DNA from: Methanosarcinales archaeon | GTDB lineage: Archaea > Halobacteriota > Methanosarcinia > Methanosarcinales > Methanogasteraceae | Reading direction: 5' to 3' | Length of the DNA: 43,200 nucleotides | Assembly (NCBI GenBank): GCA_030625165.1 | Contig: DAOURL010000002.1 | Span: forward strand, 1-43,200 | In this document: in pieces, positions 11,410 to 43,200 of the stretch | Layout: each line of letters opens with the position of its first letter | Numbering within the stretch: position 1 is the first letter of the stretch | Position numbers and translations under genes: made by a program | The notes under the pieces: model-generated | What the model saw: only the letters and a program-made list of their open reading frames with translations | What the model was told of the DNA's origin: nothing | Databases searched by the model: none

Positions 11410-11502
11410 AACAACCCCGTCCAGACCCCCGACCCGTAAGATTCATTGCGGGTCCCGCTCGCATTACATATCAGACCGCAGGTAAGCGACTCTGAAAGAA
11501 CC

Positions 11503-13053
11503 ATGATCTGCCCATCCGGACTCCCGGAAAACCCAGGATGCTATCTCTTCAAAGATGCCGCTGATAACATAATCTACGTGGGGAAAGCAAAGAATCTCAA
11601 AAAGCGCGTCCATAGTTACTTCCAGAGACGCGAGCGCGACCCAAAGACCGAGGTCCTCGTAGAGAAAGCAGATTCTGTCGATTTCATCGTCACGGACAGC
11701 GAACTCGAGGCGCTGATCCTTGAAAACACCCTCATTAAGCGACACCAGCCGAGATATAATATCGACCTTAAGGATGCGAAGAGTTACGCATACATCCGGA
11801 TCACGGACGAGGAATTTCCGCGTATCGGGATTGCACGGAGGTTGGACGGAAGCGGAAGTTTCTTTGGTCCGTTTGTCACTGCAAAGGAGCGCGACTATAT
11901 CCTTTCGGTCGTGAAAAAGACGTTTAAGCTGCGATCATGTCGCAGACTCCCGAAACGGGCGTGTCTCAGGTACCATATCGGGTCGTGCAGCGCGCCGTGT
12001 ATCGGAAAGATCAGCAGCGAGGAGTACCGCACGCAAGTCGCCCGGGCGCAGTCGCATCTCCGCGGGAATACGAGCGATCTGATCCGGTCTTTATCGCAGG
12101 AGATGGCAGAAAAATCGATGGAACAGGAATTTGAGTTTGCGATGGAACTCAGGGACCAGATCGCTGCCATCGAGCACCTTGCAGAACGCCAGTATGTGGA
12201 TCGGCAGAAGAACTACGATGAGGATGTCATCAACTACGTGAAAAGCGATGGCAAGGTCTATCTCATGCTCTTCAACGTGTACAAGGGCATGCTCGCAGAC
12301 AAGCAGGAGTTTGTCTTCGATGAGCGCGAGGAGGTGATCGACGAGTTCCTTGTGCAGTACTACTCAGAGCACTGCCCGCCGCCCGAACTGATCCTGCCCT
12401 CGCAGGTAAGTGACGTGATCCCGGATTTCCTCATCCGTAGGAGCGGGCGGCGGGTCAGGATCACGATCCCGAAGCGGGGTGAGAAGAAGAAGCTGCTCGA
12501 TCTCGTCAGGAAGAACATCGAGATTTCATTCTTTGGCGGGCAGATCAAACTTGAGGCGCTGAAAAACCTTCTCGGGCTTCCCCGCGTCCCCACGGTCATC
12601 GAGTGCTTCGACATCTCCCACCTATCAGGCACGTCGATGGTCGCATCGATGGTGCAGTACAGGGCAGGAAAGCCGGATAAACGGAATTACAGGCGGTTCA
12701 AGATCAGGACGGTCGAGAAGATCGACGATTTCGCTGCCATTGCCGAGGTCGTGCGGAGACGGTATTCGCGCCTGAAAAGGGAGGATGGTGAATTCCCGGA
12801 TCTGGTAATCATCGATGGCGGAAAGGGGCAGCTCTCGGCAGCCCGCGGGGAGATTGAGAGGCTCGGGCTCAGGATTCCAATCATCTCCATCGCCAAGCGA
12901 GAGGAAGAGATCTATGTGCCGGGTCTCACCCATCCCCTGCCTTCTGACCGGAAGGATAAAGCATCGCTCTTTGTTCAGGAGATCCGGGATGAGGCGCACC
13001 GGTTCGCAGTCGCGTACCACCGGCTGCTCAGGCGAAAAGCGGTGGTGTCATGA
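11503..13053 (+). CDS. uvrC: Excinuclease ABC subunit C (short form without the C-terminal HhH2 domain)
   Basis: GIY-YIG (GCYLFKDAADNIIYVGKAKNLKKRVHSYF), UVR domain (FEFAMELRDQIAAIEHL), RNase H-like endonuclease domain (IECFDISHLSG..IIDGGKGQL) and IRDEAHRFAVAYHR. I prefer the ATG at 11503 (TTACATAT box about 32 nt upstream). Confidence 0.9.
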   Translation: MICPSGLPENPGCYLFKDAADNIIYVGKAKNLKKRVHSYFQRRERDPKTEVLVEKADSVDFIVTDSELEALILENTLIKRHQPRYNIDLKDAKSYAYIRITDEEFPRIGIARRLDGSGSFFGPFVTAKERDYILSVVKKTFKLRSCRRLPKRACLRYHIGSCSAPCIGKISSEEYRTQVARAQSHLRGNTSDLIRSLSQEMAEKSMEQEFEFAMELRDQIAAIEHLAERQYVDRQKNYDEDVINYVKSDGKVYLMLFNVYKGMLADKQEFVFDEREEVIDEFLVQYYSEHCPPPELILPSQVSDVIPDFLIRRSGRRVRITIPKRGEKKKLLDLVRKNIEISFFGGQIKLEALKNLLGLPRVPTVIECFDISHLSGTSMVASMVQYRAGKPDKRNYRRFKIRTVEKIDDFAAIAEVVRRRYSRLKREDGEFPDLVIIDGGKGQLSAARGEIERLGLRIPIISIAKREEEIYVPGLTHPLPSDRKDKASLFVQEIRDEAHRFAVAYHRLLRRKAVVS

Positions 13054-26579: not shown

Positions 26580-27338
26580 ATGATTGACCAATTTAATGAT
26601 ACCGATAAGATAAAAATTGCTTTGCTGATAGATGGAGATAATGCACAAGCGACTCTAATTGAAAAAATCTTAGCTGAAACGGGTAAACACGGACCAATTA
26701 CGATAAGACGTATTTATGGCGACTGGACTACACCAAATATGAATAGGTGGAAAGAGACTTTAAATAATCTTGCAATTCAACCAATTCAACAGTTCCGTTA
26801 TACTGTTGGCAAGAACTCCACAGATAGTGCTATGATTATTGATGCAATGGATATCCTTCATGACGGTTCAGTAGAAGGTTTTTGTATCGTTTCCAGTGAC
26901 AGTGATTATACAAGACTTGCAACTAGAATCCGTGAAAGTGGTATTTTTGTGATGGGGATTGGTAAAAGCACAACACCAAAGGCATTCGTAAACGCATGCA
27001 AAATGTTCATTTATACTGAAAATCTAACATCCGGAGATTCTATCCCGGGAAATGAAACGGGATCAACGCGTTCATTAACAACCGGTGAAAAAGCGAAAGT
27101 AGCGGATCCGATTCCATTACTCAAAGAAGCTTTTGAAATGGCTTTAGGGGAGGATAGTTGGGCACATTTGAGTGCGATGGGAAATTGTTTACTCCAGTTA
27201 GATCCGGGTTTTGATCCAAGGTCGTATGGATACAAACAATTATCCCTACTTGTTAAGGCGCATTCAAATTTATTTGAATTAAAAAATATCAAGATGAAAA
27301 ATGGCCCTGATGTTTTTTATATAAAAATCAAAGATTAG
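26580..27338 (+). CDS. NYN (LabA/PIN-like) nuclease domain protein with C-terminal OST-HTH/LOTUS domain
   Basis: IALLIDGDNA..RIYGDW..DSAMIIDAMD..FCIVSSDSDYTRLATRIRESG..VMGIG is the NYN/LabA signature. The C-terminal approx. 70 aa (WAHLSAMGNCLLQLDPGFDPRSYGYKQLSLLVKA) is LOTUS-like. The gene is AT-rich. Confidence 0.8.
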   Translation: MIDQFNDTDKIKIALLIDGDNAQATLIEKILAETGKHGPITIRRIYGDWTTPNMNRWKETLNNLAIQPIQQFRYTVGKNSTDSAMIIDAMDILHDGSVEGFCIVSSDSDYTRLATRIRESGIFVMGIGKSTTPKAFVNACKMFIYTENLTSGDSIPGNETGSTRSLTTGEKAKVADPIPLLKEAFEMALGEDSWAHLSAMGNCLLQLDPGFDPRSYGYKQLSLLVKAHSNLFELKNIKMKNGPDVFYIKIKD

Positions 27339-27382: not shown

Positions 27383-27618
27383 GTAACTACTCAGGTACCT
27401 AAAACCACTATCGGGGGACTTCACTATGCAGGGACTACTCGGGACGTGGGGGGTACTGTAATCAAACCGGGAATTTAACCGCAGAGTACGCGGAGGGACG
27501 CGGAGGGGAAATAAACGGTTAAATGCTCTGCGTTCCTCTGCGCCCTCCGCGGTTATTTTTCTTGCCAGAAAGTACATGATCGCAATCGGGCGACCAATCA
27601 ACATACCTGAGTAGTTAC
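27383..27618. mobile_element. MITE-like element, family B, copy 1, with 8-bp target-site duplication
   Basis: Perfect 15-bp TIRs GTAACTACTCAGGTA / TACCTGAGTAGTTAC. Flanking direct repeats GAAAAATT sit at 27375-27382 and 27619-27626. Central hairpin at 27477-27554. More than 85% alike to 42967-43200. Confidence 0.8.
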
Positions 27619-28705: not shown

Positions 28706-29791
28706 ATGAACCGGATACGTGCATGTCTCTATCTCTCGGTCTTTGTGATCATGGGGCTCTCGGATGCGGTCGTGCCGATTCTCCCGGATCTCTCTGATGA
28801 AACGTTTGTGCAGAGCATGATCTTCTCCGCGTACTTTGCAGGCGCACTCGTCTCAATGATCCCGCTCGGGATGCTTGCGGACCGGTACGGAAATCCGCGG
28901 TTCATCCTGCTCAGTATCGTTCTGACAATCATATCCGGATTACTGATCCTCTTATCCGACTCCCCCCAGATCCTCGTGTCTGCGCGTTTTGTCGAAGGGT
29001 GCGCCTGCGGGGCTTTCTTTCCGGCAGCGTTCTCGATGATTGCGAAATTTAAGAATCGAAGGAAGTACATAGGAGAGTTTACTTTTCTGATCAATATCGG
29101 GCTTGCTCTCGGTGTTGCAGCCGCTGCCGCGCTTAAGTATTACCATCCGAAAGGTGGAATACTGGTATTTGCCTTGCTCGCCATCCCTGCACTGGTGCTT
29201 GCGATTTCACTGAAACAGGAGCCCGATGATCCCGATGTCCCGCCTGCACCGCAGAGGATTTCAGGTATATTTGCGATCCTTTCCGATGCGCGGTATCTAC
29301 AGATATGGGTGATCGCCTTCGTCTTATTTGGTGCGACAGGGGTTATTGTTGCTTATTTCCCATCTTTCACGGATTTAACACCGTCTCCTCTGGGACTTGC
29401 ACTTTCCGGCGTCTATTTTGGAGCGATGATAACCTCGCTCATCGGCGGTCGTGCGTGTACCACTGAACGCTGGCTGATCCGGGCAGGTGCGCTGATAACC
29501 GGAATCGGCATCGTGGCGACCATATACCATCCGATCGGGCTTACCATCATGGGTGCCGGATCCGGGTTTGCGATGGTCGGGCTTGTCGCAGGGGTTGCAT
29601 CTCTCGGTTCTGATCGGGGCATGGCGATGGGGGTCTTCAATACATGCACTTATGCCGGATTTGCTACACTTCCGGTATTTGCGGCAGGAATTCTCTTGTA
29701 TGTCGATTATGTAGCACTCTTCGGAATCGCCGGAGTCGCTGTGGGCGCGCTCACTCTCTTTCCGTTGCATGCGCTTGCGGTGAAGCGGTGA
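28706..29791 (+). CDS. MFS transporter
   Basis: 361 aa, about 12 predicted TM helices, and the LGMLADRYGNPR loop motif between TM2 and TM3 typical of MFS. Confidence 0.85.
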   Translation: MNRIRACLYLSVFVIMGLSDAVVPILPDLSDETFVQSMIFSAYFAGALVSMIPLGMLADRYGNPRFILLSIVLTIISGLLILLSDSPQILVSARFVEGCACGAFFPAAFSMIAKFKNRRKYIGEFTFLINIGLALGVAAAAALKYYHPKGGILVFALLAIPALVLAISLKQEPDDPDVPPAPQRISGIFAILSDARYLQIWVIAFVLFGATGVIVAYFPSFTDLTPSPLGLALSGVYFGAMITSLIGGRACTTERWLIRAGALITGIGIVATIYHPIGLTIMGAGSGFAMVGLVAGVASLGSDRGMAMGVFNTCTYAGFATLPVFAAGILLYVDYVALFGIAGVAVGALTLFPLHALAVKR

Positions 29792-29860
29792 TCCATCCGC
29801 CCCCTATTATAGAGGTTCGCGCAAAGTGGCATGGTATGACCGCCCCACCGCGCCGCAAGG

Positions 29861-29868
29861 TTTATATA
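29861..29868 (+). promoter_or_regulatory. TATA box of hairpin-RNA copy A
   Basis: CAAGG-TTTATATA. The TATA centre lies 26-27 nt before the first stem base (29892). Confidence 0.6.
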
Positions 29869-29891
29869 GTAGTACGTAGTAGTGGTGTACC

Positions 29892-29966
29892 ATGCGAGCG
29901 GGTTTCTAAAAACTCTTTTTAACCACACTAACCCCCACTCCCCACTTCCCACACTCCCGCTCGCAT
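29892..29966 (+). ncRNA. Candidate hairpin sRNA, copy A
   Basis: ATGCGAGCGGG (29892-29902) pairs with CCCGCTCGCAT (29956-29966). The 53-nt loop is G-free. Confidence 0.5.
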
Positions 29967-30103
29967 ATCCCCCTCACAAGTTATTCAGTTTTGACTACGA
30001 CTACAGTCTAACGACTACAGTCTAATTGGTGGCAGGCCTGTGTATGGCAATGTTGGCTGTGAATATGTCAGGATTATAGTGAATATCCTGTTGAACCGCA
30101 AGG

Positions 30104-30111
30104 TTTAAATA
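30104..30111 (+). promoter_or_regulatory. TATA box of hairpin-RNA copy B
   Basis: CAAGG-TTTAAATA. The TATA centre lies 26-27 nt before 30134. Confidence 0.6.
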
Positions 30112-30133
30112 ATATCACAATACAATATAACAT

Positions 30134-30213
30134 ATATGCGAGCGGGGTTTTGAAAAAAACTCTTTTAACTACTAACCACACACCCCTCAACCTCCACACT
30201 CCCGCTCGCATAT
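30134..30213 (+). ncRNA. Candidate hairpin sRNA, copy B
   Basis: ATATGCGAGCGGG (30134-30146) pairs perfectly with CCCGCTCGCATAT (30201-30213). The loop is C/A/T-only apart from two G residues near its 5' end. Confidence 0.5.
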
Positions 30214-30350
30214 CCTTCTTACAAGTTCTCCACTTTCGATTGTTTCAGTTTTGACTACGACTATGGTCTGATGGGTAGTAGGTCTGCGTATGGCAACGTT
30301 GGATGTGAATATGTCAGGATTATTGTAGAGATCCTGTTGAACCCATAAGG

Positions 30351-30358
30351 TTTAAATA
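30351..30358 (+). promoter_or_regulatory. TATA box of hairpin-RNA copy C
   Basis: TAAGG-TTTAAATA. The TATA centre lies 26-27 nt before 30381. Confidence 0.6.
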
Positions 30359-30380
30359 ATAGCACAATGCAATATGACAT

Positions 30381-30469
30381 ATATGCGAGCGGGTTTTTGA
30401 AAAAAACTCTTTTTTCACCACTAACTCCACACTATACCCCCCTCAAACCCCACACTCCCGCTCGCATAT
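30381..30469 (+). ncRNA. Candidate hairpin sRNA, copy C
   Basis: ATATGCGAGCGGG (30381-30393) pairs with CCCGCTCGCATAT (30457-30469). The loop is 63 nt. Confidence 0.5.
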
Positions 30470-30815
30470 CCCTTTATACCGTGTTTCCGAAAAGTTTCTG
30501 TAATGTCATCCGTAATCCACCTCATTCGTGAAATTTGTGTGTGAAAGAAGTCGCATCACCGATTGCCTCATCAACTATCCTTCCATTCAGGGTAATCCTG
30601 CTCTGGAATGCGTGGATGGCGACTTTGCGGATGCTTCGCATTAACGCTTGCGCGTTGGGAACGTGGAAAGTCAGAAAGTCCGGGTTCCGGATCAACTGCC
30701 CTGATAAAGACGCTACCCCTTAAGAACCAGATAAATCGATAGCCGTAACATGAATCACATCTTAAATACTGATAAATACCTTGCCACACATAACACCGTA
30801 CCGGAGTAGGATACC

Positions 30816-32198
30816 ATGAAACAACTCGAGATTCTCGCAGCTCCGCTCGAAGAGAGGTCGCTCAAACTCCTCCTCTTCGGCGCGGGCGAACTCGGAAAAG
30901 AGATCGCGATAGAAGCCCAGCGCCTCGGCATGGAGGTCATCGCTGTGGATCGATACGAACGAGCACCAGCACAGCAGGTCGCGCACAAGTCGTACACCGT
31001 CAACATGATGGATGCGAATGCGATGCGTTCGATCGTGGATCGGGAACTACCTGATATCATCATACCGGAGATCGAGGCGATCGACCTCGATGTTCTCTTC
31101 GAGTTCGAGGAGGACGGGTATCTGGTCACGCCGAACGCAGCGGCAACTCATGCGGCGATGAACCGGGAGCGCATCAGGGAGTTAATCGTGAAATCGGGCG
31201 TTAAAACAGGCGCGTACGCGTACACCCGCACAGACGATCTCTCTGAGTTTACAGACGCTGTCGAGAAGATAGGGTATCCGTGCTTCTCAAAGGCGATCAT
31301 GTCGAGCAGCGGCAAGGGCTCGTACTTCATCGAGAGCCGCGATGACATCGAAGCAGCGATGGACGCTGCCAGATACGAGACCCGCGGATCAGGCGAACGT
31401 GCGATCATCGAGGAGTACATCCCGTTTAATACCGAGGTCACAGAACTTGCTGTGAGGCATCTGGATGAGGACGGCAACATCGTCACCACATTCCCAAAGC
31501 CGGTCGGGCACTACCAGATCGATGGCGATTACCACTCATCGTGGCAGAGTCCGAATATCGAGGAGTATCTTCCGTACAACGTGGATGATATCGGAAAGTC
31601 TGTCGAAAAAGACCCCGAGCTTGCGAAAGAGGCGGAAAGGAAGATTTACGATGCTGCACGCCGGATCACGGACGAACTGGGTGGAGTCGGCGTCTTCGGA
31701 TGCGAACTCTTCGTCCGTGTCAGGGATGGCAAAGTCGAGGTCTATGGCAACGAATGTGCGCCCCGTCCGCACGATACCGGTATGGTTACGTATATCTCGC
31801 ATCCGCAGGGCTTTAATGAGGGCGGCTTGCATGTGCGTGCGATCACAGGACTTCCGGTTCCAGCGAGGATCGAGGATGGTTATCGGCTCTTCGACCCACT
31901 GATGCCAGCGGCATCCCACGTGATCATCTCACCAGCCCAGGGGTTCGATCCGATGTACAAAGGCATCTTCGATGCGATGTCTGTGCCGGGCACCAATATC
32001 CAGCTCTTCGGAAAGCCGCTTGCGTATCACAGCGGGTGGATCGTTGAAGAGCGGATGGGCATCGCGCTTGCCATGGGCGCAGACGCGTTCGATGCGAAAA
32101 GGAAGTCTGAAGTTGCTGCGCACAAGATCCTGATCAGGACTGCGACAGACAGGGAATGGCGCGGGCAGGAAGAGACGCGGATGCATGTAGCGGTGTAG
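30816..32198 (+). CDS. purT: Formate-dependent phosphoribosylglycinamide formyltransferase (GAR transformylase 2)
   Basis: KLLLFGAGELGKEIAIEAQRLGMEVIAVDRY..AP..VAH and an ATP-grasp body match PurT. About 70 aa longer than the E. coli protein, with an internal insertion and a C-terminal extension. Confidence 0.85.
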   Translation: MKQLEILAAPLEERSLKLLLFGAGELGKEIAIEAQRLGMEVIAVDRYERAPAQQVAHKSYTVNMMDANAMRSIVDRELPDIIIPEIEAIDLDVLFEFEEDGYLVTPNAAATHAAMNRERIRELIVKSGVKTGAYAYTRTDDLSEFTDAVEKIGYPCFSKAIMSSSGKGSYFIESRDDIEAAMDAARYETRGSGERAIIEEYIPFNTEVTELAVRHLDEDGNIVTTFPKPVGHYQIDGDYHSSWQSPNIEEYLPYNVDDIGKSVEKDPELAKEAERKIYDAARRITDELGGVGVFGCELFVRVRDGKVEVYGNECAPRPHDTGMVTYISHPQGFNEGGLHVRAITGLPVPARIEDGYRLFDPLMPAASHVIISPAQGFDPMYKGIFDAMSVPGTNIQLFGKPLAYHSGWIVEERMGIALAMGADAFDAKRKSEVAAHKILIRTATDREWRGQEETRMHVAV

Positions 32199-42721: not shown

Positions 42722-42946
42722 GTAACTACTCAAGTACCTAAAACACTATCACGAGACTTCACCTATACCGGCACTATCTGACCCGGGACATACCGGAACC
42801 AAACAGGGAATTTAACCGCGGAGGGCGCAGAGGAACGCGGAGGAGGCTAAAAACTCTGCGAACCTCTGCGTACTCCGCGGTTATTTTTCTTGACAGAAAG
42901 CACAGGATCGCAATCAGGAGACCAATCAGCATACCTGAGTAGTTAC
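42722..42946. mobile_element. MITE family B, copy 2
   Basis: TIRs GTAACTACTCAAGTA / TACCTGAGTAGTTAC. Hairpin core at 42814-42882. The most diverged full copy. Confidence 0.75.
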
Positions 42947-42966
42947 TTTTTTTCTTTTCTTTTTCC

Positions 42967-43200
42967 GTAACTACACAGGTACCTAAACCACTATCGGGGG
43001 ACTTCACTATGCAGGGACTACCCGAGACATGGGCATACTGTAACCAAACAGGGAATTTAACCGCAGAGTGCGCGGAGGGGCGCGGAGGGGGGATAAATGG
43101 TTAAATGCTCTGCGTTCCTCTGCGCCCTCCGCGGTTATTTTTCTTGTCAGAAAGTGCAGGATCACAATCGGGAGACCAATCAACATACCTGAGTAGTTAC
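42967..43200. mobile_element. MITE family B, copy 3 (ends exactly at the window edge)
   Basis: GTAACTACACAGGTA ... TACCTGAGTAGTTAC. Hairpin core at 43059-43136. Nearly identical to copy 1. Confidence 0.8.

Follow-up and report, generated by a model that had tools for sequence, protein, structure and literature searches.

Tandem promoter–hairpin units in ANME-2c archaea: a predicted small RNA gene family not described before

Three head-to-tail units in the window (that is, the whole 43,200-nucleotide stretch of DNA analysed here) are, on sequence grounds, predicted members of a small RNA gene family that is new to the literature and in which each copy has its own promoter. To date the family is known only from ANME-2c archaea, methane oxidisers that are responsible for much of the anaerobic methane oxidation in marine settings and have no pure culture, and we found no literature on the small RNAs or RNA biology of this lineage. 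We consider it very probable that these are genuine plus-strand RNA genes, and we lean towards reading the three units as tandem paralogues of an ANME-2c-specific small RNA family, each an independent transcription unit, with a proposed pairing or decoy role. Multiple copies, extreme conservation and a promoter like that of stable RNA genes together suggest that the RNA is abundant and has an important role specific to this lineage, although we infer its transcription start site, 3′ end and abundance from the DNA. The covariance model of the family (model R1) may serve as a genomic marker of the lineage and open a way into the study of post-transcriptional regulation in ANME archaea.

Architecture of the units

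Each unit has the order AAGGTTTAWATA (BRE/TATA), 23–24 nt, ATGCGAGCGGG (5′ arm), a G-poor loop of 53–63 nt and CCCGCTCGCAT (3′ arm), and the features are collected in Table 1. A unit of about 245 bp repeated head to tail three times, as given in the preliminary description, agrees with the period-246 array found by TRF at 29908–30471 (2.3 copies, 79% matches); unit 3 consists of promoter and hairpin only and lacks the spacer of approximately 130 nt.

Table 1. Positions of the array and its parts in the window
Feature	Position	Strand	Remarks
Three head-to-tail units	29857–30469	+	between MFS transporter gene and purT
BRE/TATA, unit 1 (AAGG-TTTATATA)	29857–29868	+	exact pattern match
Hairpin RNA gene (predicted), copy 1	29892–29966	+	model R1 85.9 bits; MFE −19.5 kcal/mol, z = −6.8
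Inter-unit spacer 1	29967–30099	+	conservation poor except promoter-proximal end
BRE/TATA, unit 2 (AAGG-TTTAAATA)	30100–30111	+	exact pattern match
Hairpin RNA gene (predicted), copy 2	30134–30213	+	model R1 84.1 bits over 30136–30211; fold
Inter-unit spacer 2	30214–30346	+	homologous to spacer 1
BRE/TATA, unit 3 (AAGG-TTTAAATA)	30347–30358	+	exact pattern match
Hairpin RNA gene (predicted), copy 3	30381–30469	+	model R1 84.4 bits over 30383–30467; fold

The promoter sequence AAGGTTTAWATA has three exact matches, one per unit, against 0.15 expected, and the TATA octamer ends 23–24 nt ahead of the first helix base in all three units; the fixed promoter-to-stem geometry described earlier is thus arithmetically correct, and the same distance recurs throughout the family wherever the upstream sequence reaches far enough. 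Stable-RNA genes of methanogens carry an ‘ATGC box B’ at their start sites. The methanogen TATA box (TWTATATA) lies at approximately −31 to −24, with variable TATA–TSS spacing (PMC2699501; PMC5378194), and the octamer found here (TTTATATA or TTTAAATA), accompanied by an A/G-rich BRE at approximately −31 to −24, resembles the box A (TTTATATA) arrangement described for methanogen stable-RNA and other strong promoters (PMC2699501). Box A defines a promoter class and not an RNA family, and the likeness implies only that the genes look strongly and constitutively transcribed.

The arm ATGCGAGCGGG is joined by its perfect complement three times (29892/29956, 30136/30201 and 30383/30457), and with up to one mismatch allowed the arm has 8 matches in the window (1.3 expected), a count reached by none of 100 shuffles. 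Copy 1 forms an 11-bp helix (29892–29902 with 29956–29966) around a 53-nt loop that has no G at all. Copies 2 and 3 have a longer helix of 13 bp (AT...AT): in copy 2 it pairs 30134–30146 with 30201–30213 and closes a loop of 54 nt that has two G and includes ACCUCC, and in copy 3 it pairs 30381–30393 with 30457–30469 and closes a loop of 63 nt (63–68 nt in the orthologues) that has one. Given fold energies of −19.5 to −22.2 kcal/mol (z = −5.7 to −8.1), the arms, the gaps between them and the folds all bear out the 11–13-bp stem and nearly G-free loop reported before, and because the loop has virtually no G it should be unable to fold on itself. With its filters off, model R1 recovered only these three copies from the whole window, the next best hit scoring 14.6 bits (E = 0.21); a lone CCCGCTCGCAT half-site at 11454–11464, which lacks a partner arm and a promoter, was taken as a chance occurrence.

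T-rich stretches had been noted after the 3′ stem, yet only T4 runs at +23 and +38 are present there, and these are not conserved in the family: among 67 distinct exact-stem copies, no conserved run of four or more T follows the 3′ arm. The conserved T5–7 run sits inside the loop, 20–30 nt past the first helix base, and an intrinsic or oligo-T terminator hairpin was rejected on this pattern (that is, a conserved run in the loop and none directly after the stem). As the loop run resembles an archaeal oligo-T termination signal, 20–30 nt into the predicted transcript, it could truncate transcripts ahead of the 3′ arm. The statement that there is no ORF is not literally correct: mechanical ORFs of 34–54 amino acids do cross the hairpins, as expected given that the sequence is G-free. 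Indels in the loops of orthologues disrupt the reading frames of these ORFs, and we rejected a coding role on this inconsistency. A leaderless five-codon micro-ORF (MRAGF) was also rejected, being broken or extended in some family members.

At its promoter-proximal end, spacer 1 carries CAGGAT-N10-ATCCTG (30069–30090) followed by CTGTTGAAC; it also contains a 14-nt tandem duplication at 29997–30025 that is specific to this window. A MITE-like element with a 235-bp unit and 15-bp terminal inverted repeats at its ends lies at 27384–27618.

Distribution and conservation of the family

A scan of 185,579 species genomes for the exact stem returned 47 loci, against approximately two chance matches by our own estimate, and 46 of them have a G-poor loop. 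All but one of these 46 belong to MAGs labelled ANME-2, ANME-2c, Ca. Methanogaster, Methanosarcinales or Methanobacteriota; the remaining one is labelled Desulfuromonadales, yet matches the archaeal copies. The 47th locus (Gemmatales) looks like a chance match and was set aside. Metagenomes yielded 30 further loci, 29 of which are family members, under a pattern (transitions only, with pairs 3–4 fixed) that limited which stem changes were visible. Overall, model R1 finds approximately 110 copies, spread over approximately 75 contigs; almost all of these contigs come from MAGs of ANME-2c (Ca. Methanogaster/Methanogasteraceae) and from seep metagenomes. Across 428 kb of loci the model revealed no further divergent members. 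The module occupies at least six syntenic intergenic loci, and a MAG carries three to seven or more copies, arranged in tandem arrays. Its neighbours are thermosome, purT, leuA-like, HflX, GHMP-kinase, CbiD and cyclase genes, and the elements, which are always intergenic, lie upstream of, divergent from or convergent with these genes depending on the locus. Two cyclase homologues (57% and 53% identity) are non-syntenic and lack the element, the latter being probably bacterial, as it stands beside sigma-70 genes.

Among 12 orthologous contigs of copy 1, the BRE/TATA is 98.6% identical (0.986) and the hairpin 98.8% (0.988; 4 of 75 columns variable), with identities of 0.767 for the TATA–TSS spacer, 0.73–0.76 for the 3′ flank, 0.734 for the upstream intergenic DNA and 0.897 for the end of the MFS coding sequence. 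The conserved block coincides exactly with promoter plus hairpin, and neighbouring protein-coding DNA is less well conserved than the RNA (approximately 90% versus 98.8%). In one contig in which the adjacent cyclase protein is only 73% identical, a near-identical RNA is retained (85.5 bits).

The stem variants are paired in 99.3% of cells. Three stem pairs show compensatory double changes (A-U to G-C, C-G to U-A and G-C to A-U). Wobble pairs (G·U or U·G) account for 13 cells, and the three unpaired cells all fall at the loop-closing pair; the observed covariation score was reached by none of 500 shuffles. In a minus-strand RNA the G·U changes would be A·C mismatches. Taken together, compensatory and G·U changes with only three unpaired cells point to a plus-strand RNA helix rather than a DNA palindrome, and a helix kept by compensation and wobble, combined with a conservation block that matches the predicted transcript, is the generic signature of a structured non-coding RNA. 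The earlier argument for function at the RNA level, as opposed to a DNA repeat, is strengthened by these changes as well as by the conserved block and the promoter at its fixed distance.

The loops of the 67 distinct exact-stem copies contain 1572 C, 1046 A, 1028 T and 46 G (1.2% G) and range from 47 to 75 nt across the family. Their 5′ part is conserved (an A-run, a U5–7 run and then ACCAC) and is followed by C/A-rich tracts (CCACAC, CCCCAC, CUCCC), reading …AACCACACUAACCCCCACUCCCCACUUCCCACACU in the Methanogaster type and …ACCACAUUCCC…CCCUCCCUCCAUGUR in a second clade.

Relation to known RNA and repeat classes

No Rfam family had a match anywhere in the window at gathering thresholds, and a search of 29700–30900 with Rfam 15 at E values up to 10 gave only sub-threshold chance similarities to S15 (12.9 bits) and SgrS (9.1 bits); with approximately 110 members at conserved loci, the reading of the self-contained promoter and closed-hairpin modules as a new small RNA gene family, suspected in the preliminary description, is supported. 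That description had also seen no tRNA, C/D-box or H/ACA signature, and we concur. ARAGORN found no tRNA or tmRNA genes in the window. A C/D box sRNA has a C box (RUGAUGA) near its 5′ end, a D box (CUGA) near its 3′ end and a k-turn with tandem G·A pairs; here the ends form a perfect Watson–Crick helix, and GA-containing boxes are impossible because the loops are 1.2% G. An H/ACA sRNA is a hairpin that holds an internal pseudouridylation pocket, carries a k-turn or k-loop in its upper stem and is followed by a 3′ ACA, whereas the present element is one uninterrupted helix with no upper stem and no conserved ACA after it. CRISPR arrays consist of identical direct repeats of 25–40 bp and unique spacers of similar length, and were rejected because repetition here, with a period of 246 bp, extends to the entire unit, ‘spacer’ included.

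Likenesses of a looser kind exist. Y RNAs and vault RNAs (approximately 80–110 nt) have paired ends, a conserved stem and a large pyrimidine-rich loop, and their genes have TATA-type promoters of their own and are often clustered, but the likeness is in architecture only: the host is archaeal, the family matches neither Y_RNA nor YrlA in Rfam, its helix is a perfect 11–13 bp without the bulged Ro-binding motif, and no Ro/TROVE gene was seen near the elements. The C-rich-seed sRNAs RsaE and RoxS of Firmicutes are analogous. Methanosarcina mazei, of the order Methanosarcinales, has intergenic sRNA genes with their own promoters (sRNA154, through its loop 2, and sRNA41) whose exposed pyrimidine-rich loops mask purine-rich ribosome-binding sites (PMC5867862), and some ANME-2c loops likewise contain ACCUCC or CCCUCC. 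However, these M. mazei RNAs have no sequence or Rfam similarity to the ANME-2c family, which is set apart by a single near-invariant clamp helix, a G-free loop of 50–70 nt and multi-copy tandem arrays, and CCUCC is not universal in its loops (22 of 60 distinct loops, near the composition-based prediction). Compared with the archaeal sRNAs described to date, this architecture is unusual in combining an invariant clamp helix with a G-free loop that is forced to stay single-stranded.

Possible roles and competing readings

We suggest that the strong BRE/TATA of methanogen type (AARGTTTAWATA) sets initiation at, or a few nucleotides from, the first base of (AU)AUGCGAGCGGG, giving a transcript of 75–90 nt in which the near-invariant, GC-rich clamp helix of 11–13 bp would close a loop of 47–75 nt and shield both RNA ends. 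The loop U-run is a candidate binding site for Sm-like (SmAP/Lsm) proteins, and the constantly single-stranded C-rich tract may pair with G-rich RNA, possible targets being Shine–Dalgarno-like GGAGG or GGGG or another G-rich site, such that the RNAs might act in trans as antisense regulators or decoys. A pairing or decoy role has a precedent in the anti-RBS loops of M. mazei sRNA154 and sRNA41 (PMC5867862), and base pairing with a G-rich target as the mechanism is put forward only tentatively. Complementary 11-mers occur at chance level in 484 kb of ANME-2c DNA, RNAduplex energies of the loop against 13,593 windows are no better than those of a reversed-loop control, and the regions upstream of the genes in the window have only ordinary GGAG-type Shine–Dalgarno motifs, which are partly present.

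The near-invariant helix could equally mean sequence-specific recognition by a protein. In a credible though unlikely alternative, the RNA is real but acts as a protein-binding scaffold or decoy (similar to Y RNA, CrcZ or CsrB), its helix and CA/C-rich motifs being recognition sites for one or more RNA-binding proteins (Sm-like, KH or cold-shock-type) and not pairing seeds. The absence of signal in the target searches is consistent with this, as are the near-invariance of the helix sequence itself, beyond pairing, across clades with diverged loops, the recurrence of CCACAC, ACCACA and CCCCAC at 2–5 fold over composition, and the motif duplications and wide loop range, which fit a multivalent platform. 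Yet no partner protein gene is linked to any locus, we know of no archaeal C-rich-RNA-binding regulator, and the whole 53-nt loop, beyond the short motifs, is 99% conserved within the Methanogaster clade. That distal-loop conservation, together with the 3′ arm and the compensatory changes, would also be left unexplained by a short promoter-proximal transcript or attenuator, in which a leaderless MRAGF-stop micro-ORF would start at the AUG of the 5′ arm and termination or read-through would occur at the loop U5–7 run. An AUG at the predicted +1, a stop at codon 6 in most subfamilies (UAA or UGA, via different codons) and a T5–7 run 6–12 nt past that stop speak for such a device, but the micro-ORF is destroyed (AUGUGA) or lengthened to 11 or approximately 37 codons in some members, and we regard it as very unlikely.

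A repeat acting at the DNA level, be it a palindromic mobile element of the MITE or REP kind or a DNA palindrome bound by a protein, in either case with an incidental AT-rich box, seems highly improbable. Similar to MITEs and REP-type repeats, the elements are short, intergenic and present in many copies per genome with 11-bp inverted arms, they can be tandem, their tandem copy number varies from one to three at orthologous loci, and copies often lie at contig ends. However, the arms enclose only 50–70 bp, one-sided stem changes are G·U in 13 cases and A·C in three (a strand bias unexpected in duplex DNA), the strand asymmetry of the loop is extreme at 1.2% G, positions are syntenic and not scattered insertion sites, and the promoter is conserved at a fixed upstream distance. 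In addition, plasmid and phage collections gave no blastn match to the unit, IMG/VR viral contigs contain no occurrence of the exact-stem pattern, and the genuine MITE in the window, with its longer terminal repeats, is differently built. Nor do we give much more than passing credence to a cis-acting leader, 5′ UTR element or extra promoter for the downstream gene: purT, two thermosome genes and a leuA-like gene do have elements 100–575 nt upstream in the same orientation, but at other loci the elements converge on or diverge from both flanking genes (HflX/GHMP kinase, CbiD and GHMP kinase/radical SAM), the DNA between element and gene is not conserved, and each tandem copy has its own promoter.

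Beyond the trans-acting pairing or decoy RNA that we favour, a rather doubtful but far-reaching reading is that the RNA is a component of an unrecognised, abundant ANME-2c ribonucleoprotein or decoy system and not an ordinary antisense regulator. The invariant clamp helix would then be a protein handle, and the clade-diverged, expandable, G-free C/A-rich loop a multivalent platform that titrates a C/CA-binding protein or globally sequesters G-rich sequences (for example, Shine–Dalgarno sites or G-quadruplex-prone RNA or DNA); if true, the family would constitute a new class of structural or regulatory RNAs in archaea. The loops themselves expand by short motif duplication, as in L003:744, where CAAACCCCA occurs three times.

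Architecture of the array

The array lies in the 1-kb intergenic region between the stop of the MFS-transporter gene and the purT-like gene (see table), and a three-way alignment resolved its period of 246 (Tandem Repeats Finder, window) into two complete units and a third that stops just past its own hairpin. Each unit carries one exact match to AAGGTTTAWATA (that is, AAGG and the TATA octamer; three matches versus 0.15 expected by chance), from which the first helix arm, ATGCGAGCGGG, begins 23–24 nt in the 3′ direction; its perfect complement follows after 53, 54 and 63 nt (copies 1, 2 and 3), and in copies 2 and 3 the helix reaches 13 bp through flanking AT/AT. Re-deriving the motif, arm positions and spacings reproduced the coordinates and promoter-to-stem geometry of the preliminary description. 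The + strand RNAs of the three copies each fold into one clamp helix with an open loop (−19.5 to −22.2 kcal/mol; z = −5.7 to −8.1), and R1, a covariance model of the RNA family, has exactly three matches in the window. The 14-nt tandem duplication within spacer 1 is missing at all orthologous loci and is thus a recent insertion in the window lineage. In units 2 and 3, an inverted repeat lies directly 5′ of the BRE/TATA; it is conserved above the remaining spacer among orthologues and could be a transcription-factor site. A lone exact arm copy elsewhere in the window is probably due to chance, since neither a second arm nor a promoter nor a C-rich loop accompanies it.

Positions of the array and other features in the window
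Feature	Position	Remark
Lone arm copy	11454–11464	CCCGCTCGCAT on +; − strand match; adjoins start of ORF 11446–13053
NYN (RNase) + OST-HTH/LOTUS (RNA-binding) domain protein gene	26580–27338	2.5 kb upstream of sRNA array
MITE-like repeat	27384–27618	
MFS-transporter gene	28706–29791	Pfam MFS_1
AAGGTTTAWATA, units 1, 2 and 3	29857, 30100, 30347	start positions
Period-246 array	29908–30471	
Duplication of ACGACTACAGTCTA	29997–30025	2.1 copies
CAGGAT-N10-ATCCTG, then CTGTTGAAC	30069–30090, 30315–30336	units 2 and 3
purT-like ATP-grasp gene	30816–32198	
MITE-like repeats	42722–43200	running past window end

In all family members whose upstream sequence is long enough, AARG-TTTAWATA ends 23–24 nt ahead of the helix. 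Methanogens have a TATA box, TWTATATA, at about −31 to −24 (in stable-RNA genes known as 'box A', TTTATATA; PMC2699501), and on sequence grounds AARG-TTTAWATA is such a box. Transcription is predicted to start at the first helix base or a few nucleotides away; as the TATA–TSS distance varies in methanogens (PMC2699501), being about 19–22 nt in Methanolobus (PMC5378194), the start is placed only to within a few nucleotides of that base.

The 11-bp helix is nearly invariant family-wide and closes a loop of 47–75 nt with 1.2% G (C 1572, A 1046, U 1028 and G 46 in 67 distinct exact-stem copies). The 5′ part of the loop is conserved throughout the family ((UUUCU)A4-9 … U5-7 A(A)CCAC), and the remainder is C/A-rich (55% C, 30% A and 1.7% G) and repeatedly shows the motifs CCACAC, ACCACA and CCCCAC; loop length changes by duplication of short C-rich motifs. 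The loop at L003:744–840 is enlarged by a triplicated CAAACCCCA motif. In the third copy at the HflX locus (L038:6517–6585, L051:1716–1784 and L074:1846–1914) the U-run is interrupted (UUUGUG), the loop is shorter and several pairs are G·U; R1 scores are lower (56–60 bits), and the copy may be decaying or diverging. Both cases represent paralogue turnover within arrays.

The T-rich stretches previously noted 3′ of the stem proved to be T4 runs only (at +23 and +38), none of them conserved family-wide, and no conserved T-run follows the second arm in the 67 distinct exact-stem copies; the element is therefore not a terminator hairpin. The sole conserved T-run (T5–7) lies inside the loop, 20–30 nt past the first helix base, where archaeal RNA polymerase would be expected to terminate in part; the run is either read through or part of regulation.

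Distribution and genomic setting

A scan for ATGCGAGCGGG-N40–70-CCCGCTCGCAT with exact arms, in which each prokaryotic species was represented by a single genome, returned 47 loci versus about 2 expected by chance (our estimate). The loop is G-poor in 46, of which 45 lie in ANME-2, ANME-2c (methane-oxidising archaea), Ca. Methanogaster, Methanosarcinales or Methanobacteriota MAGs. Locus L016 (MAXT01000059.1) is labelled Desulfuromonadales bacterium and its copy is identical to ANME-2c MAG copies in L013 and L018; the contig was probably mis-binned from the ANME partner of a syntrophic consortium. The 47th locus, in a Gemmatales MAG, has 20 G in its loop and looks like a chance match. A metagenome scan (arms degenerate for transitions only) yielded 30 further loci, one of which (L053) is unrelated, and R1, trained on 60 distinct members, recovered about 110 copies across the scanned loci. 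Viral contigs, plasmids and phages contained no family match. Single MAGs carry 3–7 copies, which are minimum figures, since copies often lie at contig ends, and the window-type locus has 1 to 3 copies depending on the genome. L020 shares 96.6% identity with the window across 4.3 kb, which assigns the window to an ANME-2c archaeon.

By Blast clustering the loci fall into four or more syntenic groups, with some singletons besides, and the elements are always intergenic. They lie between MFS and purT (the window and nine genome loci), in pairs between thermosome and a divergent cyclase and putative methyltransferase, singly or severally some 100 nt ahead of another thermosome gene, in threes between convergent HflX and GHMP kinase genes, between GHMP kinase and radical-SAM genes, adjoining cbiD and upstream of a leuA-like gene. 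As their orientation to these neighbours varies, they are presumably separate transcription units and not leaders. Two clades, Methanogaster-type and a second, have cyclase proteins about 67% identical; second-clade loops differ (AAAAUAACUUUUUUACCACAUUCCC…CCCUCCCUCCAUGUR), and helix and promoter are the same.

None of the papers searched ties ANME-2c to small RNAs and no Rfam model fits; we file the family as new among archaeal intergenic sRNA genes and unusual in architecture. The preliminary proposal of a new sRNA family is supported, except for its 3′ terminator detail; the RNA would be highly conserved, multi-copy and lineage-specific in an uncultured archaeon of biogeochemical importance.

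Selection footprint and stem evolution

In an alignment of 12 distinct orthologues of copy 1, mean pairwise identity is 0.897 at the MFS coding end, 0.734 in upstream intergenic DNA, 0.986 in the BRE/TATA, 0.767 in the TATA-to-helix spacer, 0.988 across helix–loop–helix (4 of 75 columns variable), 0.730 in the 30 nt after the helix and 0.758 in the following 100 nt. The conserved block thus comprises promoter and hairpin, ending at the final helix base, and a near-identical RNA is kept on a contig with a neighbouring cyclase only 73% identical.

Among 37 distinct arm combinations (gapless rows of both arms plus 8 loop nt on each side), 99.3% of stem cells are paired. Compensatory double changes occur at pair 1 (A-U to G-C; L056, L060, L070 and L072), pair 8 (C-G to U-A; L068) and pair 9 (G-C to A-U; L014/L066), one-sided changes to G·U or U·G at eight pairs (13 cells in total), and the only three unpaired cells are A·C, all at the loop-closing pair 11. 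The observed covariation score and double-change cell count were reached by none of 500 shuffles. No transversion was found in the arms by either an any-substitution search (up to three per arm) or the R1 search of all loci; the variants themselves were ascertained with exact arms only (genome scan) or transitions only (metagenome pattern). Extreme G depletion of the loop is present in every subfamily. Each + strand G·U would be A·C, and hence unpaired, in a minus-strand RNA, a bias not expected of duplex DNA. Footprint, stem evolution and strand asymmetry together are evidence for the + strand RNA as the functional molecule, and render a MITE/REP-type DNA repeat unlikely.

Candidate roles and rival identities

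Known RNA classes offer no match: Rfam and tRNA searches were empty, and the combination of perfect helix and G-free loop excludes C/D and H/ACA signatures, neither of which the preliminary description had seen. CRISPR was rejected for the array. Its description as ORF-free needs qualification: mechanical ORFs of 34–54 aa exist and are not conserved. Frames across the loop are open because G is scarce and UAA is the only possible stop, and they shift among orthologues, so coding was rejected. A leaderless micro-ORF (AUG-CGA-GCG-GGN-UUY-stop) has been lost (AUGUGA) or lengthened in part of the family and would leave the 3′ arm unexplained.

Comparative analysis establishes a family of promoter-equipped, strongly constrained, putative + strand RNA hairpin genes. 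We suggest that the helix joins both ends of an RNA of about 75–90 nt, probably stabilising it, and that the loop, lacking the G needed for G-C or G-U pairs, would be single-stranded. Whole loops are 99% conserved within a clade and different between clades, which points to a co-evolving, sequence-specific partner, the simplest being a G-rich RNA segment. The A-run and U-run could pair weakly as an A-U hairpin or be bound by an Sm-like protein. The principal alternative, a scaffold or decoy RNA that binds protein, is favoured by the invariant helix sequence and by loop growth through motif duplication. Pairing with a G-rich RNA would resemble sRNA154 and sRNA41 of M. mazei (same order), whose pyrimidine-rich loops mask the RBS (PMC5867862), in that several family loops contain ACCUCC or CCCUCC; CCUCC is not universal, and target complementarity in 484 kb of ANME-2c DNA is at background level.

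A separate, unrelated MITE-like repeat family is also present in the window and provides a contrast to the RNA family; a single copy separates the NYN/LOTUS gene from the ORF after it, and about two stand in tandem after an AcnX gene. Its unit of about 235–245 bp begins and ends in 15-bp terminal inverted repeats that match perfectly (GTAACTACTCAGGTA … TACCTGAGTAGTTAC), and encloses a very stable, GC-rich hairpin with a U5 run behind it (hairpin energy about −60 kcal/mol; z about −8 to −11).
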